Shown here: positions 3,148-57,053 of the stretch, piece after piece | How the letters are laid out: every line of letters starts with the position of its first letter | How positions within the stretch are numbered: the stretch's first letter is position 1 | Source: Catillopecten margaritatus gill symbiont | GTDB lineage: Bacteria; Pseudomonadota; Gammaproteobacteria; PS1; Pseudothioglobaceae | Reading direction: 5' to 3' | Assembly (NCBI GenBank): GCA_037956075.1 | Contig: CP138327.1 | Span: forward strand, 1,308,296-1,372,295 | Length of the DNA: 64,000 nucleotides | Notes under the pieces: model-generated | Databases searched by the model: none | Told to the model about the DNA's origin: nothing | The model's input: only the letters and a program-made list of their open reading frames with translations | Translations under genes and position numbers: made by a program

Positions 3148-3513
3148 TTATGCGTTATTATCCTTGATTTGCGCCCTGTCAGATTCATCATCCGCACCCG
3201 TCCACAATTTTTCTAATTTGTAAAACTCACGGGTTTTTTCCGTCATCACATGCACCACCACTTCGGCTAAATCAATCAGCATCCAGTGTCCAGTTTCTGC
3301 CCCTTCAATGCCGACGACTTTCATCCCAAGACGCTTCGCCTCGATTTTTACATTGTTGGCAATACCGCGTACATGCTGGGTGGAACGCCCTGTAACGATG
3401 ACAATCGCTTCAATATCCGCACTCTGTTTTAAGACTTTCAAGGTAACGACATTTTCGCCTTTCAGTTCTTCGATAATGTCGGTAACGGCTTTTAATTGTT
3501 GTTCTAAATTCAT
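3148..3513 (-). CDS. rsfS: ribosome silencing factor
   Basis: 121 aa Iojap/RsfS-like (VIVTGRSTQHVRGIA ... WMLIDLAEVVVHVM ... YKLEKLW). Conserved nadD-rsfS-rlmH order. Confidence 0.9.
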   Translation of the reverse strand: MNLEQQLKAVTDIIEELKGENVVTLKVLKQSADIEAIVIVTGRSTQHVRGIANNVKIEAKRLGMKVVGIEGAETGHWMLIDLAEVVVHVMTEKTREFYKLEKLWTGADDESDRAQIKDNNA

Positions 3514-4079
3514 AATGCCCTAATGTAATTAATAAGTGATTCTGGCAGCAACCCAGATAAATCCTGATGACCGCCTATTTTAGCGTGAATTTCAGTAGAT
3601 GAAACACTAACCAATGGCATTTTAGCAAAATACACCCCCTTGTAAGAGGTTGAACCTCTTACATCTCTTACACTTCTTGCAAGGGGTGAGCGAGGTAATA
3701 CTGCCAGCTGTGCATAATTTTTAAATTGTTGGTAGTCTTTCCAGGTATTGAGCGTATCAAAACTATCTGCACCAATAATTAAAAAGATTGTTTCATTTGG
3801 GTAATCTGCTTTAATTTCCTTGAGTGTGTCAATTGTCCAAGAGGCACTTTCTCTATCCATTTCACGGGTATCAATTTGCAATTCATTGAACTCAACAAGT
3901 GCGAGATTTAACATTTCAAGGCGTTGTTGATTTGAAAACTGCAACCCTTTTTTATGCACGGGTGCTTTACAAGGCATCAAAAAAAGTTGATTTAAGCCCA
4001 ATTCTTTTTTAATTGCACGAGCCATTTTTAAATGCCCGTAATGCACAGGGTCAAACGAACCGCCAAAAAAGCCAATCAT
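3510..4079 (-). CDS. nadD: nicotinate-nucleotide adenylyltransferase, carrying an in-frame REP palindrome
   Basis: GGSFDPVHYGHL motif and SSTEI near the C-terminus. The REP at 3641-3663 is translated as VRGSTSY. Confidence 0.9.
   Translation of the reverse strand: MIGFFGGSFDPVHYGHLKMARAIKKELGLNQLFLMPCKAPVHKKGLQFSNQQRLEMLNLALVEFNELQIDTREMDRESASWTIDTLKEIKADYPNETIFLIIGADSFDTLNTWKDYQQFKNYAQLAVLPRSPLARSVRDVRGSTSYKGVYFAKMPLVSVSSTEIHAKIGGHQDLSGLLPESLINYIRAL
3641..3663. repeat. REP palindrome TGTAAGAGGTTGAACCTCTTACA (inside nadD)
   Basis: Same 23-mer as the other REP copies in the window. Nested in a larger inverted repeat CCCCTTGTAAGA...TCTTGCAAGGGG (3636-3686). Confidence 0.9.
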
Positions 4080-6324: not shown

Positions 6325-7275
6325 ATGAGTCATCTTAATATTATTATTCCAGACCGTTTGATTGGACAACGCATTGACAGTGCGTTGGCGATTATGTTGC
6401 CAGATTATTCGCGTTCAAAAATTACGGCGTGGATCAAGGCGGGGAATGCGTTTATTCGGGATAAAACTTTCAAGCCTAAGGATAAAGTATTGGGTGGTGA
6501 GATTGTTGCTTTGGAGATTAAGAAAGAGAAATCGAATGACTGGTTGGGGGAGGAGATTCCGCTGGATGTGGTGTATGCAGACGAGGATATTATTGTGGTC
6601 AATAAGCCAGTTGGACTGGTAACGCACCCAGGGGCAGGGAACTGGACGGGGACGCTGGCGAATGCGTTGTTGCACTTTGACCCGTCACTTGCTCAGTTGG
6701 ATAGGGCGGGGATTGTGCATCGCTTGGATAAAAATACTTCGGGGTTGATGGTGGTGGCACGCAGTGAATTGGCACAGAAAAAATTGGTGGAAAATTTTCA
6801 AGAACACAGTATTGATAGGGAGTATTCGGCAATTGTTTACGGACATATGATTTCGGGTGGCACGGTGGAAGCACCGATTGGACGCGACCCTAAGGACCGA
6901 ATTAAGCAGGCAGTGGTTGAGGAAGGCGAGGGTAAAGAGGCGATTACGCATTATCGGGTGATTGATAGATTTGCCAATCACACACACATTAAAGCAATTT
7001 TGGAGACGGGACGCACACATCAGATTCGAGTACATCTATCGCATATTGGACATCCACTGTTGGCTGACCCGATGTATGGGGGCAAAATTCGTTTTCCAAA
7101 AAAAGCCGATGAGGTGTTGAAAGATGCATTGAAAGACTTTAAGCGACAAGCGTTGCATTCTAAAAAACTGACACTAACACATCCAATTACTGAAGAAATA
7201 ATGTCGTGGAAAGCACCCTTGCCGCAAGACATGCAAACCCTTATTAAAACACTACAGAAGCACGACCCTGTGTAA
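6325..7275 (+). CDS. rluD: 23S rRNA pseudouridine synthase D
   Basis: 316 aa. S4 domain followed by HRLDKNTSGLMVVA and the RTHQIRVH motif. The stop codon TAA lies inside the REP at 7271-7293. Confidence 0.9.
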   Translation: MSHLNIIIPDRLIGQRIDSALAIMLPDYSRSKITAWIKAGNAFIRDKTFKPKDKVLGGEIVALEIKKEKSNDWLGEEIPLDVVYADEDIIVVNKPVGLVTHPGAGNWTGTLANALLHFDPSLAQLDRAGIVHRLDKNTSGLMVVARSELAQKKLVENFQEHSIDREYSAIVYGHMISGGTVEAPIGRDPKDRIKQAVVEEGEGKEAITHYRVIDRFANHTHIKAILETGRTHQIRVHLSHIGHPLLADPMYGGKIRFPKKADEVLKDALKDFKRQALHSKKLTLTHPITEEIMSWKAPLPQDMQTLIKTLQKHDPV

Positions 7276-7293
7276 GAGGTTCAACCTCTTACA
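7271..7293. repeat. REP palindrome TGTAAGAGGTTCAACCTCTTACA
   Basis: Exact 23-mer. Left flank of the RAYT gene. Confidence 0.9.
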
Positions 7294-7325
7294 TCTCCCC
7301 CTGTTTTTTTGTTAAAATAATTTTT

Positions 7326-7952
7326 ATGAGAAAAACACCGCTTGTTAACCAATGCTATTACCACATCTATAATCGTGGTAACAATAGAAGGGATGTATTC
7401 CTAGATGAAAATGATTTGCAATATTTTTTAGATGCATTAAAACTCTTTAACCATACAGAGTCACTTGGATATTCTGGTCAATATCGGAGAAAAAATCCGC
7501 AAGAAGTTGAAAAAATAGTTAGCCTGGTAGCCTACGCATTAAACCCCAATCACTTCCATTTACTGCTAATGCAAAATGTTGACAATGGTATTTCAAAATT
7601 TATGCAAAAGTTAAGTACAGGTTACACCATGTTCTTTAATAAAAAATACCAAAGTAGTGGCGCGCTATTTCAAGGAAGATTTAAGTCTGTATTAGTTGAG
7701 GATGACAGCTATCTGGACCATCTATCGGCCTATATCAATCTAAATCATAAAGTGCACTATATAGTAATTGATGAAAAATATAGAAGCAGCTTCTTGGAGT
7801 ATGTAAGAGGTTCAACCTCTTACACGGATATGTGTGATAAGGATATTATTTTGGATAGGTTTTCAGCTGAAGAGTATCAAATTTTTGCCGAAAATTCGGT
7901 TAAATCAACTTTGAACCTAAGGGGTCTTCAAGATGATATATTGATGGAGTGA
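7326..7952 (+). CDS. REP-associated tyrosine transposase (IS200-like TnpA / RAYT)
   Basis: 208 aa. YHIYNRGNNRRDVF N-terminus, HUH motif NPNHFHLLL, catalytic-Tyr context SAYINLNHK. Flanked by inverted REPs. Confidence 0.8.
   Translation: MRKTPLVNQCYYHIYNRGNNRRDVFLDENDLQYFLDALKLFNHTESLGYSGQYRRKNPQEVEKIVSLVAYALNPNHFHLLLMQNVDNGISKFMQKLSTGYTMFFNKKYQSSGALFQGRFKSVLVEDDSYLDHLSAYINLNHKVHYIVIDEKYRSSFLEYVRGSTSYTDMCDKDIILDRFSAEEYQIFAENSVKSTLNLRGLQDDILME
7802..7824. repeat. REP palindrome inside the RAYT coding sequence
   Basis: TGTAAGAGGTTCAACCTCTTACA, translated in-frame as VRGSTSY. Confidence 0.9.
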
Positions 7953-7953
7953 A

Positions 7954-7976
7954 TGTAAGAGGTTGAACCTCTTACA
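7954..7976. repeat. REP palindrome in opposite orientation (central G)
   Basis: TGTAAGAGGTTGAACCTCTTACA, starting 2 nt after the RAYT stop codon. Confidence 0.9.
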
Positions 7977-7991
7977 TTTAGGTATAAAAAT

Positions 7992-29675: not shown

Positions 29676-29758
29676 AGATTCCTCGGCTAGTGCTCGGAAT
29701 GACAGGTTTTTTTTTCTGGCACCCCATTCTGTCATCCCGAGCGCTAGCCGAGGGATCT
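29676..29758. repeat. TGTCAT-core element with arms in outward (tail-to-tail) arrangement
   Basis: AGATTCCTCGGCTAGTGCTCGGAATGACA ... TGTCATCCCGAGCGCTAGCCGAGGGATCT. Confidence 0.75.
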
Positions 29759-39676: not shown

Positions 39677-39824
39677 TTTTTTCTCCTTTTTGTTAATGAT
39701 GAACCTTATATAAGGACACAAATAACAATTTCAAGGGATAAAGAAAAAATATTTTTTTAGATTAACCTAGTATTAGAATGCCTTGCATCCAAGGGCTAAA
39801 TAGCCCCTTAATCAACTTATATAT

Positions 39825-40006
39825 TGTTATTCCGAGTATATATTGTCATCTCAAGTATATTATTATCATACCAAATATATATTGCCACCCCAATTCACAT
39901 ACTATCATCTCAACTTATATATTGTCATCCCGAGCGTAGCCGAGGGATCTTTTATGGGAGCAAGATCCCTCGACTACGCTCGGGATGACAGGATTACGGG
40001 ATGACA
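39825..40006. repeat. TGTCAT-core element with a ~20-24-bp left-hand array
   Basis: About five decayed units (TATATATTGTYATYYC...), then the core TGTCATCCCGAGCGTAGCCGAGGGATCT-loop-AGATCCCTCGACTACGCTCGGGATGACA, then GGATTACGGGATGACA. Confidence 0.8.
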
Positions 40007-40055
40007 AAAAAAAGATAACAAGAGAGTAACAGAAAGGAACGCCCCTTATATTAGA

Positions 40056-46863: not shown

Positions 46864-46892
46864 TTAAGAAGGTTGTCCCACCCCCTGTCATT

Positions 46893-47093
46893 TGTCATTC
46901 CACTCCCTTTACCCCTTTGTCATTCCACTCCCTTTACCCCTTTGTCATTCCACTCCCTTTACCCCTTTGTCATTCTGTCGCCCCCCCTTTGTCATTCCGA
47001 GCGCTAGCCGAGGAATCTTGTTAACCCAAATGAGATCCCTCGGCTGACGATCGGGATGACAATAAAAAAAAGGTAATAGTGCTCGGAATGACA
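46893..47093. repeat. TGTCAT-core element with a 3 x 25-bp left array
   Basis: TGTCATTCCACTCCCTTTACCCCTT x3 (46893-46967), a 22-bp variant, then the core 46990-47059, then an extra GTGCTCGGAATGACA. Confidence 0.85.
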
Positions 47094-47322
47094 AAAAAGC
47101 AATATCCCAGAGTAACAAACAAAGACAACTCATACTATTCATAAACAACATTAAAACAATAACAAAAATACCACACCCCATCAAAAAAAAGAATTTAAAA
47201 GCACCTACCAAACCCCTAAAAAATCATTAAACTAGCATCCATTATCATCAAGTTCAGCATCAAAACCATATAGCTAATGAACATTGCCATTAATCGCACA
47301 TCATTAATTACCAGCAATTACT

Positions 47323-48771
47323 ATGCAGTTTAGTATTGTTTTTAAAACCATTGGGTTGTTGCTGATGATTTTCAGCTTAACGCAACTGCCGCCAATCTTG
47401 GTAGATGTTATTTATGCGCAGAATCAATACCCTGTCTTTTTAGCTGCGTTGTTATTAACGCTCGCTGCAGGTTTGGCGCTTTGGTTACCTTTTAGAAGTA
47501 TAAAAAAAGACTTTAGAATTCGTGAAGGGGTTATTGTTGTTGTTAGTTTCTGGTTTGTCCTTTCTTTATTTGCAACCATCCCATTTTTACTCACTGATGC
47601 ATTGCAAGTATCCTTTAGTGATGCATTTTTTGAGTCGATGTCAGGGCTTACAACCACAGGCGCTACAGTAATTTCTGGACTGGATGAGTTGCCTAAAGCC
47701 ATTCTCTACTACCGTCAACAACTCCAATGGCTTGGGGGTATGGGTATTATTGTTTTAGCGTTGGCAATTTTGCCAATGTTGGGTGTTAACGGTATGGAGC
47801 TCTATCACGCTGAATCTAGCGGTATTTCTAAAGACAGGATTATGCCAAAACTCGCACAAACTGCCAAAATGCTATGGATTATCTATATTGGCTTCACGGT
47901 TGCTTGTGCGTTGGCTTATTACTGGGCGGGTATGGATGCTTTTGACGCTATTGGACACAGTTACGCTACCGTGGCAATTGGCGGATTTTCCCCGTATGAT
48001 GCTTCTATTGGGCATTTTGACTCTGTTGCTATTGAAATGGTCGCTGTCGTATTTATGTTCTTTGCAGGTATTAATTTTTCGCTACATTTTTTCGTTTGGC
48101 GTAAAAATCATATTAACCATTATCATCAAGATTCAGAATTTAAAACCTATGTTGCCTTCCTTTTTCTCTTAACACTGGTGGTTTTTATTTATTTATTTAA
48201 CACAGGGCAATACGCAAGCCTCGGCGAAACATTTAGATATGGTATCTTTCAAAGCATTTCTATGGCAACCACTACCGGCTTTGCCTCTGCTGATTTTTCA
48301 TCGTGGGCGTTACCAATACCCGTATTATTGATTTTTGCTAGTTTTATCGGTGCATCTGCAGGCTCAACTGGTGGTGGCATTAAAGTAGTCAGAGTGCTAT
48401 TAATGTTTAAACTTGCCAATAAAGAAATCAAAAAATTCATACATCCTAATGCTCAAATTAACATTAAGCTTAATCAAAAAAGCGTCCCTAACAACACATT
48501 GATTTCAGTTTGGGGTTTCTTCGCCTTATATGTTATTGCCTTTACCTTTATTATGATTGCCTTAATGCTCACTGGACTTGACCAAGTCAGCAGTTTCTCA
48601 GCGACCGCTGCCAGTATCAATAACCTAGGTCCTGCTTTAGGCGAAGTCTCTGCCAACTATAGCAATATCAGCGACACCGCTAAATGGATTCTAAGTTTTT
48701 CCATGCTCCTCGGTCGTCTGGAAATTCTAACTCTAATGGCACTTTTACATAAAGCCTTTTGGCGGTTTTAA
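47323..48771 (+). CDS. trkH: Trk K+ uptake system membrane subunit
   Basis: 482 aa polytopic protein. TTTGATV / GGFS / TTTGFAS selectivity-filter-like repeats. Confidence 0.9.
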   Translation: MQFSIVFKTIGLLLMIFSLTQLPPILVDVIYAQNQYPVFLAALLLTLAAGLALWLPFRSIKKDFRIREGVIVVVSFWFVLSLFATIPFLLTDALQVSFSDAFFESMSGLTTTGATVISGLDELPKAILYYRQQLQWLGGMGIIVLALAILPMLGVNGMELYHAESSGISKDRIMPKLAQTAKMLWIIYIGFTVACALAYYWAGMDAFDAIGHSYATVAIGGFSPYDASIGHFDSVAIEMVAVVFMFFAGINFSLHFFVWRKNHINHYHQDSEFKTYVAFLFLLTLVVFIYLFNTGQYASLGETFRYGIFQSISMATTTGFASADFSSWALPIPVLLIFASFIGASAGSTGGGIKVVRVLLMFKLANKEIKKFIHPNAQINIKLNQKSVPNNTLISVWGFFALYVIAFTFIMIALMLTGLDQVSSFSATAASINNLGPALGEVSANYSNISDTAKWILSFSMLLGRLEILTLMALLHKAFWRF

Positions 48772-49152
48772 CGCAAGTGTTGTATTTCTTTTCATTCTAA
48801 ATACCCCTCTCGTAACCTTGTCCTTCATACATAAGATTTATACAATAACAGCACTGTTTTAATTCTATGTTTAAAAGTTAACATCAAACTTTTTTTATAA
48901 GATAACCATATACAACGCACCTATTCAAGGCTTTTAACATTTTTTTATTATCTGTTGTTGCTCTAGTTGGCGCCCTAACATTGTTTTTCTCCTAAAAGCC
49001 AGTCACAGGAAGAAAAAAAAGTTTTTAGACTGGGTAGGGTGTTAATATAAAATATCTTGTTATTCTTAAATTTTTAATATTAAACTTGTATTAATGTATT
49101 TGATATTAAATTATATTGGGTAGTTAAAGTGTAATATTTGCTTAATTTTTTT

Positions 49153-50330
49153 TGTCATTCCATCCCCCTCTGTCATTCCATCCCCCTCTGTCATTCCAAC
49201 CTTCCTCTGTCATTCCACCTTCCTCTGTCATTCCACCTTCCTCTGTCATTCCGAGCGCTAGCCGAGGAATCTTGTCAGGTAAAACGAGATCCTTCGACTA
49301 GCGCTCAGGATGACAGTAGGGCAGGTTGTTCAGGATGACAGTAGGGCAGGTTGTTCAGGATGACAGTAGGGCAGGTTGTTCAGGATGACAGTAGGGCAGG
49401 TTGCTCAGGATGACACTCTCCTGTCATTCCAAAATCATCCTCCATTGTCATTCTAAACACCATCCCCAAAACAAAATCATCCTCCATTGTCATTCTAAAC
49501 ACCATCCCCAAAACAAAATCATCCTCCATTGTCATTCTAAACACCATCCCCAAAACAAAATCATCCTCCATTGTCATTCTAAACACCATCCCCAAAACAA
49601 AATCATCCTCCATTGTCATTCTAAACACCATCCCCAAAACAAAATCATCCTCCATTGTCATTCTAAACACCATCCCCAAAACAAAACCACCCTCCATTGT
49701 CATTCCGAGCGCTAGCCGAGGAATCTCGTATCACAAACAAAAGATCCTTCGGCTACGCTCAGGATGACAGTAGGGCAGGTTGCTCAGGATGACACTCTCC
49801 TGTCATTCCAAAATCATCCTCCATTGTCATTCTAAACACCATTCCCAAAACAAAATCATCCTCCATTGTCATTCTAAACACCATTCCCAAAACAAAACCA
49901 CCCTCCATTGTCATTCCGAGCGCTAGCCGAGGAATCTCGTATCACAAACAAAAGATCCTTCGGCTACGCTCAGGATGACAGTAGGGCAGGTTGCTCAGGA
50001 TGACACTCTCCTGTCATTCCAAAATCATCCTCCATTGTCATTCTAAACACCATCCCCAAAACAAAATCATCCTCCATTGTCATTCTAAACACCATCCCCA
50101 AAACAAAATCATCCTCCATTGTCATTCTAAACACCATCCCCAAAACAAAATCATCCTCCATTGTCATTCCGAGCGCTAGCCGAGGAATCTCGTATCACAA
50201 ACAAAAGATCCTTCGGCTACGCTCAGGATGACAGTAGGGCGGGTTGTTCAGGATGACAGTAGGGCAGGTTGTTCAGGATGACAAAAGAAGCAACACTCAG
50301 AATGACAAAAAAATCAACACCAAAACGACA
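49153..50330. repeat. hierarchical TGTCAT-core repeat complex: four hairpin cores with 18/19-, 25- and 42-bp arrays
   Basis: Left arms of the four cores start at 49244, 49698, 49909 and 50162. Five 18-19-bp units lie at 49153-49243. 25-bp units lie at 49316-49415, 49770-49794, 49981-50005 and 50234-50283. 42-bp units occur x6 (49446-49697), x2 (49825-49908) and x3 (50036-50161). Confidence 0.95.
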
Positions 50331-50486
50331 AAATAACATACTTTCATCAATTACTAAATAAGTGTTTATTTAACTTTTTTAACACCCGTGATGGTTTTAT
50401 ATTGACATCAAAGGCTTTGCAATACATCGCAATAAATCACCACAGATTCTGGAATAAAAGAAAAGGCATAACAGGGGGGTTTTACA

Positions 50487-50536
50487 TTTTTTTAATATTT
50501 TTTTAATATTTTTTTTCACATTTTTTACATTTTTTT
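50487..50536. promoter_or_regulatory. five phased T-tracts (probable intrinsically bent DNA)
   Basis: T6-T8 runs start at 50487, 50498, 50509, 50521 and 50530 (9-12 bp period). They lie about 250 bp upstream of the 50786 gene. Confidence 0.4.
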
Positions 50537-50785
50537 ATCACAATATAAGTTATTGAATTTAAAGATAAAGCAGCATATTTTTGTGTAAATAAAACTCCAG
50601 TCATGAATAATAAAGTTGATAAATAACTTTACATTGGCTTTTGTTTACTATAAAAAGCGCACTATGAGATATATTCACAGACAAAGGAAAGGAGGTTTGT
50701 AAAGCAATTGAAAGAGTGTGATCAGATTAAAGTTAATAAATAACCTGATATTATTTCTTTTACTTACTTTTACAAGTATGCAATT

Positions 50786-51547
50786 ATGAAAGCAGATTTT
50801 TTAAACAGTTCGCCCAAGTTCTTATCGCCATTGATACATATGGCGTTAGAGTTGGGCGTCAATTACAAAGAGTTTGACTGTTTAATCAGACAGGCGTTTG
50901 TGGACGAAGTAAAGGTTATCCTTGAAAAGAAAAACAAGAAACCAACTGATGCTTCTATTAGTATTGCAAGTGGACTCCCTAGAAGTTGCGTTAAAGAGTT
51001 ACAAGGAAAAAGTAACAAAGGACAAAAGAATTGGATCAGTATGCCGGCCAGAGTTATTGCCGCATGGGTTGCAAAAGGATTGGGTGATACGATTAATTAT
51101 TCATCAAAAAATGGAAAGATGGATTTCGTTTCTTTGAGTGAAAGTGTTACCGCTGAAAAATCCCCAAGAACAATTCTTAATGAATTGGTGCGTTTAGGGC
51201 AGGTTCAATTTATTGATGACCAAGTGACTTTAACATTATTTGAGCACACTTCTAATGAAAATAATTACGAAGCATTGCTTAATGATTTCACAGACAATCT
51301 TGCTTGGCATACTTTAGCAGGGTCTCATTTATTAATGAATGATCCAAAGCCAGCCTTATTAGAACAAGCAGTTAAAGTTGATGGTATTTTTGAAGAAAGT
51401 GCACAAGATTTATCCAGATTAGGAAAAGAGTATTGGAAAGACATTTCGAAAAAGATGATTGATAAAGCAACACCAATATCTGAAAAAGAAGAAAAAGAAG
51501 GCGGTAAACACCAACTGACATTTGGTGTTTATTGTTACTATGATTAA
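50786..51547 (+). CDS. hypothetical protein with possible HTH segments
   Basis: 253 aa with no family recognised with confidence. TDASISIASGLPRSCVKEL and PRTILNELVRLGQVQF look HTH/wHTH-like. Confidence 0.5.
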   Translation: MKADFLNSSPKFLSPLIHMALELGVNYKEFDCLIRQAFVDEVKVILEKKNKKPTDASISIASGLPRSCVKELQGKSNKGQKNWISMPARVIAAWVAKGLGDTINYSSKNGKMDFVSLSESVTAEKSPRTILNELVRLGQVQFIDDQVTLTLFEHTSNENNYEALLNDFTDNLAWHTLAGSHLLMNDPKPALLEQAVKVDGIFEESAQDLSRLGKEYWKDISKKMIDKATPISEKEEKEGGKHQLTFGVYCYYD

Positions 51548-51594
51548 GAACTGAATTAAAGAAATAAGAATAAAGTTAAACAAGAATAAAATTA

Positions 51595-52342
51595 GGGTCT
51601 TAACTAGTTAAGCGGCTCTTTTCTAAAATTATCAAGTAAGATTTTATACATATCTTGCTTACGATTATTAAATCTAAATTCACATTCTTTAAGATGATAT
51701 TTAAACATTTTTTTATTCATTCCTTTAAATTTTACTAGCCTAATTTTAGCATAACCCCAAAAAGATTCGATGCCGTTAATATGAGAATTTCCTCTGGCAA
51801 ATTTATTCTTACCATGATGAACACGATAATGCTTTTTATAGCCAAAATCTACTAAGCCATTATATCCACGCCATCCGTCAGAATTAATAATACTATCTGT
51901 TGATGTTTTGTCTTTTATTATGCTGTGAAGGGTTATTCTATCGCACTTTTCTATAATTTGAGTATAAACCTTATCACCTCGTTTCAATAAGCCAAATACG
52001 ATTATCTTGCCCCTGGCACCTCGGCCGCGTTTCCCACGGACGCATCGAGCACCAAAGTAGCTTTCATCAACTTCAATCTGCCCCACTAGTGGGGCAGATT
52101 GAAGTTGATATTGGTCTGATAATTCAAAAATTCTTATCCTTACAAGTGTCAAAATTTTATTAACAGTGTTTAAATTTAGATTGGTTAATTGTGCTATTTG
52201 AGTAGCGCTTAAATCCACTGAAAAATATTTAATAACTTCTCTAAATTTTGCCTCTGAAAGTCTTGAACGATTGTAATACTTATTTTTCCTTTTCATAGCT
52301 AGTATTTTAAGCAATTAAAAATTGCTTAACTAGTTAAGACCC
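51595..52342 (-). mobile_element. IS1595-family insertion sequence
   Basis: Perfect 19-bp terminal inverted repeats GGGTCTTAACTAGTTAAGC (51595-51613) / GCTTAACTAGTTAAGACCC (52324-52342) enclosing one transposase ORF. Confidence 0.85.
51604..52314 (-). CDS. IS1595-family (ISXO2-like DDE) transposase
   Basis: IEVDESYFGARCVRGKRGRGARGKIIVFGLLKRGDKVYTQII is the characteristic ISXO2-like block. 236 aa. Confidence 0.8.
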   Translation of the reverse strand: MLKILAMKRKNKYYNRSRLSEAKFREVIKYFSVDLSATQIAQLTNLNLNTVNKILTLVRIRIFELSDQYQLQSAPLVGQIEVDESYFGARCVRGKRGRGARGKIIVFGLLKRGDKVYTQIIEKCDRITLHSIIKDKTSTDSIINSDGWRGYNGLVDFGYKKHYRVHHGKNKFARGNSHINGIESFWGYAKIRLVKFKGMNKKMFKYHLKECEFRFNNRKQDMYKILLDNFRKEPLN

Positions 52343-52995
52343 AAAATGAATATCGTCAAGGTCTAAGTAAGCTCAGGCGCTGGAATAAAGCCATTAAATA
52401 CAAGGTTAATTATTTTAAATTCCCACCCCCTTTTGAAGTGGGTAAAAGTCTGGTTGATGATCACTTTAAAGACCTTTCTGATATCACTACTCTGCCAATC
52501 TCTCAAAGTAGTGATAAAAGACCTAATTTTAGAATCATACTGACTAAGCGAGTACATTACAAAGAAGCTATTGAGACATATACCAATGCCAAAGTAAAAA
52601 ATCTTGATACCGAATCTAATTGCCTGTTGTCTATTAAGCATAAGCGCTATGCATTATCTGATGCTACTGTTATTATTCCTGTTGACCATGCGATGCGTTA
52701 CGGTTTATTGCCTGCCTGTGTTGTGGAAGAACTCACTCAGGCGATGGGACTACCAAATGACTCTGATTGGGTCAACCCTTCTGTCGCTAATGACAAAAGT
52801 GTTTTGGATTTATTAACAGGACTGGATTACTTAATGTTAAGAATACTTTATGATAAGCGTCTTGAAATTGGTATGAGTGTTGAACAAAGTGAACCTATAG
52901 TTGATGAAATATTACTAGATTTTGAAGAACAAGGCCTTATCAAAAATTCCATACTTGAAGCTAGAAAATTACGCCTTAGTGCTCAACTTGAATAG
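52330..52995 (+). pseudogene. 5'-truncated gene (DUF2927-like?) abutting the IS1595 end
   Basis: The frame is open from inside the IS terminal repeat (52330) through the track ORF 52438-52995. EELTQAMGLPNDS resembles the DUF2927 motif (from memory). No signal peptide or credible start. Confidence 0.4.
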
Positions 52996-53045
52996 CGTTT
53001 GGTTGCTTTTTTTGGTAATTTAATTGTTCTGAATACTCTCGATTT

Positions 53046-53088
53046 TGTCATTCCAAATACCCTTTAGTTTTTGTCATTCCGAGCGATA
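53046..53088. repeat. left half of a TGTCAT core (plus one array unit) interrupted by IS1182
   Basis: TGTCATTCCAAATACCCTTTAGTTTT + TGTCATTCCGAGCGATA, then the IS begins. Confidence 0.85.
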
Positions 53089-54855
53089 GAGACTGTAAAA
53101 AAACCAATCCACCATCAAAATTAGTACAAAAAAAATCTAAAAAAGGCATAATATATTAAAATAACTATTTGATTTATATTAAAATAGTAGCCATGAACAA
53201 TACCTATAAAACTGGAAAAAACAGACAACAAACTCTATTATTTCCACCAAGCATAGATGAGATGGTTTCTAAAGATAATCCAGTTCGAGGTATTGACAGT
53301 TATGTCGATATATTAGATATTAGATATTTTTGATTTAGGATTTAACAATAAAACAAGCACTGCTGCTGATGGAGCTTCAGCCTTTCATCCAGCATTATTA
53401 TTAAAAATATACATTTACGGTTACACCAACAAAATTAGAAGTTCAAGAGCCCTAGAAAAAGAAATTAAACGCAATGTAGAGATGATGTGGTTATGTAAAG
53501 GGCTAACACCGAGTCATACTACTATTGCTAATTTTAGAAAAAATAATGCTAAAGCCTTAAAAAATGTTTTTAAAGAGTTTGTGCTATTGTGTAGGAACCT
53601 AGACTTAATCGGTAATGAGTTAGTTGCACTTGATGGGGCTTTTTTAAGAGCAAATGCTTCTAAAAATCAATGACTGATGCATTCAACAATTGTCAAAGAT
53701 TTAGATAAAATCACGCTTAAAATACAGGATTATCTCAGCGAGATAGACACCATAATCAACAAAATAATAAAAGTGATTTAACCATTAATGCTACTGAGTT
53801 AATTGCTAAAACCAACCAACTTAAAGACAAAAAGTTGCAACTAGAACAAGAGAAGGCATTCCTAGAACAGCACAACAAAAAACAATATAACAAAACCGAT
53901 CCAGATGCTTCTTTAATGCAAAAACCAGCCCATAATCTAATGGCATATAATAGTCAAATTGTAGTTGATGATAAATACAAACTTATTGTTGCAACAGATA
54001 TTACTAGTTGTGGCACTGATATCAATCAACTACACAAAATGGCAAAACAAACAAAAGCCATATTAGCAACAGACAGCCTTACCATTGTTGCCGATACTGG
54101 TTATGATAATCATCAACAAATTAAACAATGCTACGATGACGGCATTACCCCAATTATCCCTGGTCGCAATCTGGTAAAAGTCCAACAAAACAAAGGTAAA
54201 TTTAGTAGAGATAAGTTTGTTTATAATGCCGACATTGATAATTATATTTGCCCAAATAATAAAATATTAGCCAAGCAAAATCAACCTCAAACCAAACCCA
54301 ATGGCAAAATTAACTTTGGCTATGCTACCCGTAGAAAAGATTGTAAGCAGTGTCCTTTAAAATCCCAATGTTTACCTGATAAAACGCTAATGAAACGCAT
54401 CTATCGTTGGGAACATCAAGTTATGCTTGATAAACATTATGACAAAATGCAGACAAAAGAGGCAAAAACTACGATTAAACGCAGAGGTAGTATTGTTGAA
54501 CATCCTTTTGGCACTATTAAAAGAGGGTTAGGCTGGGATCGTTATTTGGTTAGAGGTAAAGAAAAAGTATCAGGTGAAAATGCCTTGATTATGTTTAGTT
54601 ATAATTTTAAGAGAGTAATAAATATTCTAGGAGTAACTGGGTTCATTGCAATGACTTTAGCGCTTGAAACAGGGAATATTGATACTTTTTTAGTTAATTT
54701 TTGGCAGAATTTTATTTTTAGTGGGTTATTTATTGTTGTTTTACTAAATATTGCCAATTCTTTGAATATTAAGCAAAATAGACGATATTTGTTTGGTAAA
54801 TATCTAAAAATTGTTATTTTTTGTGATTAGGTGTGGTTGGTTTTTTTACAGTCTC
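53089..54855 (+). mobile_element. IS1182-family insertion sequence (decayed)
   Basis: Terminal inverted repeats GAGACTGTAAAAAAACCAATCCAC / GTGGTTGGTTTTTTTACAGTCTC. ATA on both flanks. Confidence 0.8.
53193..54830 (+). pseudogene. IS1182-family transposase pseudogene
   Basis: N-terminus MNNTYKTGKNRQQTLLFPPSIDEMVSKDNPVRGIDSYVD, AFHPALLLKIYIYGYTNKIRSSRALE, IVADTGY. Broken by a 7-bp tandem duplication TAGATAT (53314-53327), an in-frame TGA (53671-53673) and a further frameshift near 53760-53770. Confidence 0.8.
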
Positions 54856-54983
54856 ATAGCCGAGGAATCTCGTATTCCCAACACAAGATCCTTCGGCTAC
54901 GCTCAGGATGACATTGAGGGCTGTCATCTCGACCCCCCTGTCATCTCGACCCCCCTGTCATCTCGACCGAAGCGGAGAGATCT
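54856..54983. repeat. right half of the interrupted core plus a second 17-bp array and variant arm
   Basis: ATAGCCGAGGAATCT-loop-AGATCCTTCGGCTACGCTCAGGATGACA, then TGTCATCTCGACCCCCC x2, then TGTCATCTCGACCGAAGCGGAGAGATCT. Confidence 0.85.
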
Positions 54984-55004
54984 CCTGCCACCCAAGCCAA
55001 GCAC

Positions 55005-57053
55005 CTACTCTTCAATAACAATATTATAGTCAGGCAAGGCATTCAACAATTGTTTACCATAGAATTTCGTTACCAAACGATTATCAAAAATTGTAATTTT
55101 CCCCGTGTCAGTTTCTGTTCGAATCAATCGACCACAAGCTTGAATGAGTTTGAGGGAGGCATCGGGTAAGGAAACTTCCATAAAAGGGTTGCGATTTTGA
55201 GATTGCAAATAGTCCGCTAAAGTTTTGTCGATAGGGGAGTTGGGGACACTAAAGCGAAGTTTGGCAATTATTACATGGGTGAGATTATCGCCTTTTAAAT
55301 CTACGCCTTCGGAAAAACTGTCCAATCCAAAAATAACGGATCCTTGACCTTGTTTGCGTAGGTTAAGGTGTTTTTCTAAAATCAATTTCTTTGAATATTC
55401 GCCTTGCACCAATAAGTGAGGCTCTAATTTTTGCTCCACCAAGTCTGCCACCATTTGCATTTGTTTGTTGGAGGCAAATAACACCAAAGTGCCTTCGTTG
55501 CTATCAATACGCTTTAACAACTGTGAGGCAACTTCCTGTGTATGTTCGTAAATTTGTGTGGGATTGGCGTTGAATTTAGCGACGATAAAATCTACTTTTT
55601 CAAACGAAAAAGGTGAAGGTAGGCGTAAGTATTGATTTTCTGCTTTGAGCAAACCCAGTTGCTTGTTTAGCCTATCAAAACTACCAAGTGAAGACAAAGT
55701 GGCAGAAGTGAGTACACAACCAGCAACTTTTGACCAAATTAAAGTATCTAAATTGGTGGAAATATCAGTTTGTGCGCTGTTGAGTGTGTAGTTGGTTTTT
55801 TTGTTGGCAATGCTTTTGCTAATCCAGCGAGAACAAGGGGACTTGTCGGCATTGTCTGTGGCTAAAAATGAAGTCAGTAATTCGTTGATGCCAATCATAT
55901 GTTGCTCACATTCACCGATGGCGTTGCCCAAAGTGTCTGATGTGGATTTATCAACGGGATTGATGCGCTGGTAATCTGTCCACGAATCTTTCAAAAGCAC
56001 AAATCGGGCTAAATTTTGCGTGGTTAGAGTATTTAGATGCTCGGCAATCTCGGCAACGGCACTATCTACTTGTCCTTGGTTAAACAAATGCACTTCATCA
56101 TCAAAAGACAAACCCTTGAAAAGTAAAACCAAATCCTGCACATAGTCATCCATTTGCTTAATGTCAATTTCAATCACATCTTGCTCAGTGAGTTTGGCAA
56201 TCTGCTCACTTACGCCTTTGACTTGACGAATACTGCTTTTCATAAACTCGGTGCTGGCACTCATAGAAAAATGCGACAGGGCTTTAGAATTTAGATGGTG
56301 AGCTTCGTCAAAAATAAAAATAGAGTCATCGACATTTGGCAATACCGTGTTGCCCGTGGATACATCTGCCAACACCAAATCGTGGTTGGCAACAATCACA
56401 TCGGCTTGGGTAATTTTTTTACGCGCTTTGAAAAAGGCACAATCATCATAAAATTCACAACTTTTTGCATTGCAAGTAAAGCGATTACAAGCAATTTTCC
56501 CCCATACACCGTGGTCAGGCGCACGCGTCAAATCATCTATCTCACCATTCCATTGTTTGGCAGAGTAGTCTTCCAACAGAGTACTCATTTCTCGCATTTG
56601 ATATTCACCCGGTGGCTCGTCAAACAATAAGTTTTCATCCGTACCTGCCGTGTCTTCCACCAAATTAATCAAATTGCGAATACAAACATAGCGCGAACGC
56701 CCTTTGACCAACTGGTATTGAAATTCCACAGGGCAATATTTTTGCGCTTCGGGCAAGTCCTTGAGTAGCAGCTGCTCTTGCAGGGCAACATTGGCACTGG
56801 AAATAATCAACTTCTTTTTATTGGCTTTGGCAATCGGAATAGCGCTGAGTAAATAAGCAAAAGTTTTACCCGTACCTGTTGGTGCTTCTACGCATAAAAT
56901 TCGGTTGCTGTTTGGGTATTCTCCCGTCAATGTTTTGGAGATTTCAGCAATCATTTTGTTTTGCGAGCCGCGTGGCTGAAAACCATCCATATCCTCTTTT
57001 AGCGATATAAAAGCATCACGAATTTGACCCTTTAAATCGTCAGAGAGTGCCAT
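55005..57053 (-). CDS. dinG: ATP-dependent DNA helicase, DinG/XPD family
   Basis: 682 aa. Walker A APTGTGKT, DEAH box FDEAHH, four-Cys Fe-S cluster region (CNRFTCNAKSCEFYDDC). Confidence 0.85.
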   Translation of the reverse strand: MALSDDLKGQIRDAFISLKEDMDGFQPRGSQNKMIAEISKTLTGEYPNSNRILCVEAPTGTGKTFAYLLSAIPIAKANKKKLIISSANVALQEQLLLKDLPEAQKYCPVEFQYQLVKGRSRYVCIRNLINLVEDTAGTDENLLFDEPPGEYQMREMSTLLEDYSAKQWNGEIDDLTRAPDHGVWGKIACNRFTCNAKSCEFYDDCAFFKARKKITQADVIVANHDLVLADVSTGNTVLPNVDDSIFIFDEAHHLNSKALSHFSMSASTEFMKSSIRQVKGVSEQIAKLTEQDVIEIDIKQMDDYVQDLVLLFKGLSFDDEVHLFNQGQVDSAVAEIAEHLNTLTTQNLARFVLLKDSWTDYQRINPVDKSTSDTLGNAIGECEQHMIGINELLTSFLATDNADKSPCSRWISKSIANKKTNYTLNSAQTDISTNLDTLIWSKVAGCVLTSATLSSLGSFDRLNKQLGLLKAENQYLRLPSPFSFEKVDFIVAKFNANPTQIYEHTQEVASQLLKRIDSNEGTLVLFASNKQMQMVADLVEQKLEPHLLVQGEYSKKLILEKHLNLRKQGQGSVIFGLDSFSEGVDLKGDNLTHVIIAKLRFSVPNSPIDKTLADYLQSQNRNPFMEVSLPDASLKLIQACGRLIRTETDTGKITIFDNRLVTKFYGKQLLNALPDYNIVIEE

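Follow-up and report, generated by a model that had tools for sequence, protein, structure and literature searches.

In the 64-kb window analyzed here, the whole 64,000-nucleotide stretch from the genome of the Catillopecten margaritatus gill symbiont, the repeat block downstream of trkH is a cluster of a known type of element, namely head-to-head dimers of repetitive extragenic palindromes (REPs) with TGTC/CGTC tags, located in a hypervariable intergenic zone rich in insertion sequences (IS). The new part is a general, strictly tag-side stacking of partial copies of the palindrome arm, which is extreme in this genome. Such a strict polarity of partial-copy arrays does not seem to be described in the literature on these repeats. 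As an explanation of the whole, we lean toward a REP cluster grown by hairpin-stalled replication slippage, and the identity of the cluster is held more confidently than the slippage mechanism.

The arrays of the block were checked by direct sequence reading, with Tandem Repeats Finder (TRF), and by an explicit base-by-base parse. In the parse, positions 49153-50345 were fully tiled, with zero unassigned bases, into 18/19-, 24-, 25-, and 42-bp units around four 72-bp hairpins, each of which is a head-to-head REP dimer with its tags outside. The components are as follows.

49153-49243, forward strand: left array of core 1, five 18/19-bp units, each TGTCATTCC plus a C-rich spacer of 9-10 nt
49244-49315, forward strand: core 1, a head-to-head dimer of TGTC-tagged REP arms, comprising left arm 49244-49272, loop 49273-49286, and right arm 49287-49315; fold -20.9 kcal/mol, z -6.1
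49316-49415, forward strand: right array of core 1, four 25-bp units GTAGGGCAGGTTGYTCAGGATGACA; TRF period 25, 4.4 copies, 98% matches
49416-49421, forward strand: CTCTCC, joining one element's right array to the left array of the following element, from the parse
49422-49697, forward strand: left array of core 2, one 24-mer and six 42-bp units, from TRF and the parse
49698-49769, forward strand: core 2, a head-to-head REP dimer; fold -18.6 kcal/mol, z -6.2
49770-49980, forward strand: second copy of the 211-bp higher-order unit, with one 25-mer, CTCTCC, one 24-mer, two 42-mers, and core 3 (49909-49980)
49981-50233, forward strand: third copy of the higher-order unit, with one 25-mer, CTCTCC, one 24-mer, three 42-mers, and core 4 (50162-50233)
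50234-50330, forward strand: right array of core 4, two 25-mers followed by two decayed 23/24-bp units, from TRF and the parse

The original prediction, made from the sequence without database searches, had placed the left arms of the four cores at 49244, 49698, 49909, and 50162, and these starts were exact in the parse. Its loops of 14-15 nt, its five 18-19-bp units at 49153-49243, and its higher-order unit repeated three times with different numbers of 42-mers (n = 6, 2, 3) were likewise borne out, and TRF and the parse returned the same copy numbers for the 42-mers (six, two, and three) and the 25-mers (four, one, one, and two). The 18-mer array of core 1 had a TRF period of 18 with 5.5 copies and 93% matches, while the 211-bp higher-order unit was found in 2.5 copies with 98% matches. 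The prediction had also treated the hairpins as four copies of one core, which holds for cores 2-4, since these are mutually identical (the loop of core 2 is CGTATCACAAACAAA), whereas core 1 has its own loop and its own right arm (..CGACTAGCGCTC..). Similarly, the claim that the unit ends mirror each other about each core applied to every left unit, all of which start with TGTCATTC(C), and to most of the right units, which end in CAGGATGACA except for two decayed units at 50284-50330 with the endings ..AGAATGACA and ..AACGACA.

The 25-bp units to the right of core 1 each close with the final 10-11 nt of the right arm. The 24-mer in the left array of core 2 is a 42-mer with an internal deletion, and the units of that array open with TGTCATTC. 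The CTCTCC junction recurs at 49795-49800 and 50006-50011. The units also carry ordered variant positions, with CCATTCCC confined to module 2 and ..ACCACCCTCCAT marking the last 42-mer of modules 1 and 2. Strand composition is strongly skewed, the left arrays containing 3% G and 39% C and the right arrays 41% G and 13% C (49153-49697 compared with 49316-49415 plus 50234-50283). In the window, TGTCATTCC occurs 20 times against 0.61 expected, and the 29-nt arm occurs seven times against 0 expected. The core hairpins have predicted DNA folding energies between -18.6 and -33.3 kcal/mol (z-scores between -6 and -12), the inverted REP pair being the repeated unit. The block is made of two neighboring elements joined head-to-tail across CTCTCC, the second of which was triplicated by unequal exchange.

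The prediction of a gene-free stretch was correct. No credible gene was found in 48772-50785, and the open reading frames (ORFs) of more than 40 aa there are repeat read-throughs without real family support, which arise from units with a length that is a multiple of three. The score for the 'Sushi' family is the sum of sub-threshold repeat matches, no single stretch passing. At 50480-50542, ~250 bp upstream of a DUF6502-like ORF, there is an AT-rich tandem repeat, (TTTTACATTTTTTTAATAT)-like and with a period of ~11-23 bp, which has no relation to the REP arrays.

The arm is a lineage-specific variant of a tagged bacterial palindrome of ~25 nt with a very wide distribution, GTCATYCC-GA-GCGNAGC-GA-GGRATC. 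A relaxed pattern, GTCATYCCGAGCG N1-6 CGAGGRATC, was searched in JGI metagenomes and viral contigs and was found in at least 120 metagenome stretches and 65 viral contigs, the dominant variants among the matches listed being GTCATYCCGAGCG(A/C)AGCGAGGRATC. The symbiont arm of ~29 nt comprises an unpaired TGTC tag, a stem that opens with A-T pairs (ATTCC/GGAAT), inner G.A/A.G pairs, a G-C clamp, a small loop, and a 3-nt tail. In the fold of a single arm, the 4 nt of the tag stay unpaired, the stem has 5 bp followed by an interior of 2x2 G.A/A.G, a clamp of 2-3 bp carries a triloop, and 3 nt remain as the tail.

These features were compared with the published text description of the CGTC-tagged REP superfamily, which includes neisserial dRS3 and rickettsial RPE-4/RPE-6 and in which many members have TGTC or CCTC tags (PMC3733652). 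In that description, the stem has 8-9 bp with A-T at the first two positions, the loop has 4-5 nt, and the 3-nt tail is mostly CCA, while head-to-head dimers predominate, tail-to-tail dimers are rare, and there is no flanking transposase (PMC3733652). Every arm of the window starts with TGTC, the metagenomic copies have CGTC, TGTC, or other contexts, and the tag is unpaired in the folds. The first pairs of the stem are A-T and T-A, and its five Watson-Crick pairs, the 2x2 G.A/A.G, and the 2-3 further pairs make up ~9 positions. The loop has 3-5 nt in the widespread variant (CGAAG/CGCAG), and the center of the symbiont arm is longer and irregular, GCGCTAGCC. The tail is unpaired and has 3 nt, but it reads CTT/CTC/CTG. 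Among the 231 metagenomic and viral arms listed, partners with tags outward numbered 23 and partners with tags inward two, a head-to-head predominance, and the sole Y1 transposase of the window adjoins a different palindrome. Since the tag, the A-T start of the stem, the 3-nt length of the tail, the dimer orientation, and the lack of a transposase match PMC3733652, we class the arm with the CGTC/TGTC-tagged REPs, as a variant that fits most of the tested features of that superfamily, with the interrupted stem, the enlarged symbiont loop, and the non-CCA tail as caveats. The original prediction had recognized no described element class in the structure, and this is not supported; besides the fit of the arm to the CGTC REPs, for which a head-to-head dimer is typical (PMC3733652), the ordered clusters and hairpin minisatellites also have precedents.

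No protein family recurred beside the 231 arms in 185 loci, where the only clusters were related phage contigs; a recurrent neighbor such as a REP-associated tyrosine transposase (RAYT) or a GIY-YIG nuclease was considered and rejected, none being present among these loci. The GTAG tag of the REP doublets known as REPINs was absent, the tag here being TGTC. The Rfam search of the core that had been proposed returned no family at gathering or permissive thresholds, only sub-threshold generic miRNA-hairpin models and weak RsmY/CsrB matches. Literature searches by the sequence strings of the arm and the common variants gave nothing relevant, and blastn of core 2 with its flanks gave no match in a plasmid collection. 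The viral contigs contained neither the symbiont-specific arm nor the second palindrome family of the window (family 2), which is described below.

The block is not unique, as the same design was found at four further hairpin sites of the window, at 39.8, 46.9, 53.0, and 54.9 kb. In the common layout, the hairpin has on its left tandem units headed by the arm tip and on its right units that end in the tip and decay into a tail rich in A and C. Head-to-head cores number seven in the window, and there is a single tail-to-tail dimer. The elements outside the block are as follows.

46891-47093, forward strand: sister element between trkA and trkH, with a 25-bp TTTGTCATTCC... array of 3.4 copies and a core from 46990
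39818-40040, forward strand: sister element at 39.8 kb, with a core at 39922-39990; fold -33.3 kcal/mol
53032-53092, forward strand: left part of a sister element, with a 26-bp array of two copies and the first ~20 nt of the left arm, interrupted by an IS
54857-54982, forward strand: right part of a sister element, with the remainder of the split core, an CTGTCATCTCGACCCCC array of 2.8 copies, and a variant single arm TGTCATCTCGACCGAAGCGGAGAGATCT
29676-29758, no strand assigned: tail-to-tail dimer of the same arm, tags inward, without arrays; fold -29 kcal/mol, z -9.3

The left array at 39.8 kb is composed of diverged 19-20-bp units, TATATAT plus the first 12 nt of the arm, in 5.8 copies, and decayed CGGGATGACA units lie to the right of its core. 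At 46.9 kb, the core is followed by decayed right units ending in ..GGGATGACA and ..GGAATGACA. The part at 54857-54982, where the units before the variant arm have 17 bp, is the continuation of the element split at 53.0 kb. The intervening 53093-54856 is a decayed, frameshifted IS of the IS5/IS1182 type with DUF772 and DDE_Tnp_1_6 fragments and the ends GAGACTGTAAAAAAACC, which interrupts the left arm of the REP at its ..GCG(A/C)TAGCC.. center, where an apparent duplication of 3-4 bp, ATA(G), accompanies the insertion. At this site, a REP arm acted as an IS target.

The arrays are tandem duplications of the flank plus the first 7-16 nt of the arm, and they stand on the tag side only. At 39.8, 46.9, and 53.0 kb, each array opens by repeating the 5′ flank of its arm, so that the unit is the flank plus the first k nt, a tandem duplication of which one end lies within the hairpin. 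This truncation point k is constant inside each array and differs across loci (7, 8, 10, 11, 12, 14, and 16 nt), with the four independent arrays of the window's main family breaking at 8-9 nt, and the unit length also differs by locus (17, 18, 19-20, 25, 26, and 42 bp). Partial 5′-start copies were found upstream of 23 of the 242 independent arms, nine of which had two or more, whereas the control, partial 3′-end copies downstream, was positive for five of the 242 and had no arm with two or more. The arms of the window have 4, 5, 7, 3, 4, 2, and 1 partial copies on the 5′ side versus 0 on the 3′ side. Tag-side arrays were also present in unrelated metagenomic contigs (L147, L162, L189, L264, L261, and L103/L143). 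In the metagenomic set, ~2 of ~9 array-bearing arms had a visible partner compared with a baseline of 10%, as judged by eye and from very small numbers.

The truncated units could be read as complete tandem arms that lost their hairpins. This reading was rejected, because no array of the window has complete head-to-tail arms, and it also needs many deletions ending at one identical point. At L103/L143, complete and truncated units alternate, and the lost-hairpin model may apply there. The array behavior is not specific to the tag, because the unrelated perfect palindrome of family 2, GTAAGAGGTTSAACCTCTTAC, shows similar partial copies: four of its seven copies have the outer stem partially repeated outward, on either side.

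The TGTC family is a recent, local expansion in this lineage of sulfur-oxidizing symbionts of the SUP05 clade, as indicated by the empty sites in relatives, the lack of arms in the relatives' trkH loci, and the identity of cores 2-4. TrkH has 85% identity to 'Ca. Thiodubiliella endoseptemdiera' (the Bathymodiolus septemdierum thiotrophic symbiont), 74-78% to most other SUP05/Thioglobaceae, and 64% to the most distant two. In the relatives, the closest included, trkA and trkH are adjacent, leaving an empty site for the 46.9-kb element, and in the closest relative only ~10 bp stand at the position of the 39.8-kb element (L003). No arm was found in the trkH loci of 80 relatives, and 277 kb from the 15 closest contained only tip matches at chance level. 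The trkH gene is followed by the DinG-like helicase orthologue within ~30-190 bp in L005, L007, L008, and L012, whereas in the window an additional 6.2 kb (48772-55004) separates trkH from the DinG-like helicase gene (55005-57053). Besides the block, this extra segment contains the DUF6502-like ORF (50786-51547), a DUF2927 fragment (52438-52995), and two IS elements, and it is a plasticity zone gathering REPs, IS elements, and gene fragments.

Exact copies of the window proteins were otherwise found only in short-read (Logan) assemblies of two runs, in which the contigs stop at the repeats. Contig L001 covers window positions 46990-49234 and carries the first 4.5 18-mer units with one mismatch and one 1-base gap relative to the window, L002 ends at 49182, L083 ends at ~29758, and L270 starts at 50254 and matches the window at 99.85%; no contig spans the arrays. 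The block edges are thus independently confirmed at 99.85-100% identity, and the interior copy numbers are those of the window's own assembly, the ORFs derived from the interior repeats (49234-50254) not being on record as independent confirmation. Between the DUF6502-like ORF and the DUF2927 fragment, there is an IS1595-type element (51594-52343) with a transposase at 51604-52314, the ends GGGTCTTAACTAGTTAAGC, and no clear target duplication. L270, which represents a co-occurring strain (Logan SRR26445939), diverges exactly at the left end of this IS1595-type element (L270 position 1341 onward) and past the junction has an ORF of at least 686 aa running off the contig end, which marks a strain-level rearrangement. 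Elsewhere in the window, a very short CRISPR-like array lies on the minus strand at 1190-1966, with three 28-nt repeats at 60-bp spacing (1808-1956) just over the gathering threshold of Rfam CRISPR-DR4 and a diverged orphan copy at ~1190; no cas genes were found among the scanned ORFs adjoining it.

The one candidate REP enzyme of the window belongs to another palindrome. The ORF at 7326-7952 (208 aa) matched Pfam Y1_Tnp above threshold (E 1.7e-11) and has intact HUH (NHFHLLL) and Tyr (LSAYINLNH) motifs that are invariant among homologues. Its score against the NCBIfam RayT model was 26 bits, below the cut-off of 80, while several JGI records call its homologues 'REP element-mobilizing transposase RayT'; neither the protein nor a 28-sequence profile gave an informative match in PDB. 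The gene has a pseudouridine synthase gene on one side and a Cu-oxidase_4 family gene on the other, and inverted copies of the palindrome GTAAGAGGTT(C/G)AACCTCTTAC flank it at 7272 and 7955 (region 7271-7978). These belong to family 2, a perfect palindrome with seven exact copies in the window that is unrelated to the TGTC arm. A third copy, at 7803-7823, lies in frame inside the 3′ part of the gene and encodes ..EYVRGSTSYT.., a linker that is variable among homologues; this in-gene copy is also present in the 80%-identical orthologue (L271, ~2506-2526), which has the same syntenic position and the same three palindromes. A 57%-identical homologue (L272/L273) is flanked by a co-varying palindrome, GCAAGGTTSAACCTTGC.

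The RAYT-like gene and family 2 form a classical unit of RAYT plus REP. Consequently, the TGTC family is left without a dedicated enzyme in the window, as in the literature on CGTC REPs, and no cognate RAYT flanked by the same REP was found for it within the 64 kb. A further family-2 palindrome stands at 3642-3678 with two 3′ partial copies (ATCTCTTAC and ACTTCTTGC), inside a minus-strand ORF (3510-4079) that is cytidylyltransferase-like, putatively of the NadD type, and has a Pfam match ~30 residues longer than the profile. This is an apparent intragenic REP insertion.

The favored explanation combines the REP cluster with a stall-and-slip mechanism that we infer from the arrays. In the founder event, replication would stall within the first few bases of the hairpin, and the nascent end would realign upstream, so that the last 9-34 nt of the flank are duplicated along with the arm's first 7-16 nt. 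Since both outer ends of a head-to-head dimer are tags, the same event on the other strand would create the mirror-image right array. The resulting tandem repeat could then grow or shrink by slipped-strand mispairing and unequal exchange, and unequal exchange between the arrays of neighboring elements may have generated the duplicated 211-bp module (25-mer, CTCTCC, 24-mer, n x 42-mer, and core) of cores 2-4. A structure-driven copying error is favored over a site-specific enzyme because break points are variable, spacers come from the flanks, and an unrelated palindrome behaves alike. Template switching at the arm tip by a hairpin-recognizing enzyme had been one of the options in the original prediction, from which we keep the arm tip as the site of a copying error and drop the enzyme.

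Several points weigh against hairpin-stalled slippage, the evidence for which is anatomical throughout. A pure hairpin stall predicts arrays on both sides of a lone arm, but the lone arms of L147 and L189, which have no detectable partner, carry theirs exclusively on the tag side, and two or more 3′-side partial copies are not seen at any arm of the metagenomic sample. An extra assumption is needed, namely that singletons are decayed dimers or that the tag itself matters. In addition, the nearest-neighbor energy of a single arm is no better than that of shuffled sequence (z ~0), and any stalling must depend on the dimer or on non-canonical G.A and triloop stabilization, which is left out of the energy model. 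At the start of the 18-mer array, a T-run is followed directly by a tip, with no recognizable spacer copy there, and this array is not a clean fit to (flank + tip)n. Finally, five independent arrays have spacers that, read on the tag strand, are strikingly rich in C and poor in G, which the model does not explain.

The arrays might instead be an enzyme footprint, which we regard as unlikely. A HUH/RAYT-like nickase or another enzyme would read the TGTC/CGTC tag and the hairpin and nick near the tag, and repeated nick-primed synthesis and re-ligation would add units of tip plus filler on the tag side, recording the machinery that propagates CGTC REPs. The strict tag-side polarity, which holds even at arms without a visible partner, points in this direction, as do the 8-9-nt breaks of the four independent main-family arrays, the functional-looking HUH/Tyr enzyme encoded within the window, and the strong conservation of tag and stem across phyla, which suggests a trans-acting reader. 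However, the truncation point spans 7-16 nt over the loci, the unrelated perfect palindrome has outward partial copies on both sides, and the RAYT-like gene of the window, its 80% orthologue, and its 57% homologue are tied to the other palindrome family. Moreover, no protein family recurs next to the arms of the 185 loci, and the literature reports no transposase associated with CGTC REPs (PMC3733652). The variable truncation, the similar behavior of the unrelated palindrome, and the link of the sole HUH enzyme to family 2 also argue against the hairpin-recognizing enzyme that had been suggested originally. In a broader form that we consider quite unlikely, the arrays on the tag side, in the symbiont as well as in unrelated viral, soil, and aquatic contigs, may have been left by the mechanism that propagates CGTC/TGTC REPs; one example would be nicking at the tag-stem junction by a conserved host enzyme, with the nick priming abortive copying by strand displacement.

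Selection for function is improbable, although an 8-11-nt motif is conserved at regular spacing, and tandem tips might bind a nucleoid or regulatory protein that reads TGTCAT. Alternatively, the right arrays might act as an RNA resembling a CsrA/RsmA sponge, since their units carry CAGGATG and gave weak RsmY/CsrB matches (16.2 and 9.4 bits), and the genes on either side of the elements are convergent or co-directional, an arrangement in which REPs are believed to act on mRNA (PMC3733652). The Rfam scores, however, compare with gathering thresholds of 57 and 71, respectively, and the predicted RNA folds have no systematic GGA in the loops; the CsrA-sponge RNA was dropped after the arrays were folded. 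In the block scan, promoter-like sites were no more frequent than in shuffled controls, and no terminator was found. Unit length, spacer, and copy number are different at each locus, the arrays decay into A/C-rich tails, and they are missing at the same gene junctions in close relatives. Mis-assembly of a simpler locus, as a source of the hierarchical repeat or its copy numbers, is very improbable. The interior (49234-50254) is in no independent contig, its repeat ORFs are not on record elsewhere, and short-read assemblies break at both block edges. Yet both edges were reproduced at 99.85-100% identity in independent short-read assemblies of two samples, including 4.5 18-mer units and the last 25-mer with its decayed tail, and the architecture recurs at four other sites of the window and in unrelated metagenomic contigs. 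The ordered variant positions are atypical of a collapsed or expanded assembly, and the source contig has 1.54 Mb. A miniature inverted-repeat transposable element (MITE) would make the core a miniature derivative of a neighboring IS moved in trans by a DDE transposase. We find this barely conceivable: the core is a short inverted repeat, and IS1595-type and decayed IS5/IS1182-type elements lie within 4 kb, but the ends of both are unrelated to the arm, the IS5-like element is inserted into a core, which is its target and not its product, no target-site duplication surrounds the cores, and the arm belongs to a cross-phylum REP-type family.

The polarity rule bears on the origin and spread of CGTC-type REPs, a group with no associated transposase (PMC3733652). 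It is a testable regularity, according to which partial copies of the tag end and flank always stand on the tag side, across unrelated genomes. If the footprint reading were true, a symbiont genome with unusually developed arrays would be a natural system for finding the propagation machinery; if the arrays are mere by-products of slippage, they show cleanly how hairpins drive the expansion of intergenic DNA in a small genome, and nothing more. The breaks of short-read assemblies at REP elements help to explain the fragmented and incomplete metagenome-assembled genomes (MAGs) of such symbionts. The trkH gene is stranded on short-read contigs of 1.9-2.2 kb bounded by two REP elements, and genes such as trkH could drop out of the binned MAGs of this lineage. 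If the arrays vary among strains, they could serve as variable number tandem repeat (VNTR) markers for co-existing strains, as in the VNTR fingerprinting of Wolbachia (PMC3287509).

Among the known systems, the elements share with the CGTC REPs an unpaired tag, an A-T start of the stem, a small loop in the widespread variant, a tail length of 3 nt, an extragenic location, head-to-head dimers, the lack of a flanking transposase, the coexistence with a GTAG-type family in one genome, and clusters in endosymbionts. CGTC REPs form large clusters in Neisseria and Wolbachia and occur mainly in Alphaproteobacteria (PMC3733652), whereas the host here is a gammaproteobacterial SUP05 symbiont. The arm also differs in having a stem broken by tandem G.A/A.G, an enlarged loop, and CTT/CTC/CTG as the tail, and tandem arrays of truncated tag-plus-stem copies are not described in PMC3733652. 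In ordered REPIN clusters, near-identical doublets and their flanks are arranged in tandem, with up to four REPINs over more than 700 bp (PMC3116915). The tag of REPINs is GTAG, their cognate RAYT has that same REP on its flanks, and their singlets can be read as decayed doublets (PMC3116915). Cores 2-4 with the 211-bp module resemble such clusters and BIMEs, the bacterial interspersed mosaic elements, in having an inverted doublet hairpin as the unit. In contrast to REPIN/RAYT systems, the tag is TGTC and the RAYT-like gene in the window is flanked by family 2, with no cognate enzyme in view, and the REPIN description is without partial-arm minisatellites.

The Wolbachia repeats VNTR-141 and VNTR-105 are intergenic minisatellites whose periods contain 23-bp hairpins with 9-bp stems and short direct repeats (PMC3287509). 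They have a high identity between periods, internal-deletion variants, and strain-variable copy numbers, and hairpin-triggered slipped-strand mispairing has been proposed for them (PMC3287509). The block is likewise an intergenic hairpin minisatellite of a symbiont with high unit identity and an internal-deletion variant. However, the Wolbachia hairpin is present in every period, whereas most units here (18, 24, 25, and 42 bp) have no more of an arm than its outer 7-11 nt and are arranged in mirror polarity around a complete hairpin, the whole hairpin being repeated only in the 211-bp module. Where Wolbachia strains vary in copy number, the only difference seen here, between the window and L001, is one mismatch and one 1-base gap in the 18-mer array. 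Neisserial intergenic mosaic elements (NIMEs), as cited in PMC3733652, are intergenic mosaics in which CGTC-1 (dRS3) palindromes are clustered amid other repeats and are targets of mobile elements. By that cited description, dRS3 is interleaved with distinct RS families and not with its own truncated copies, unlike the arms here, and the two systems are alike in offering a palindrome as the target of a mobile element, as seen in the IS5-like insertion into a core.

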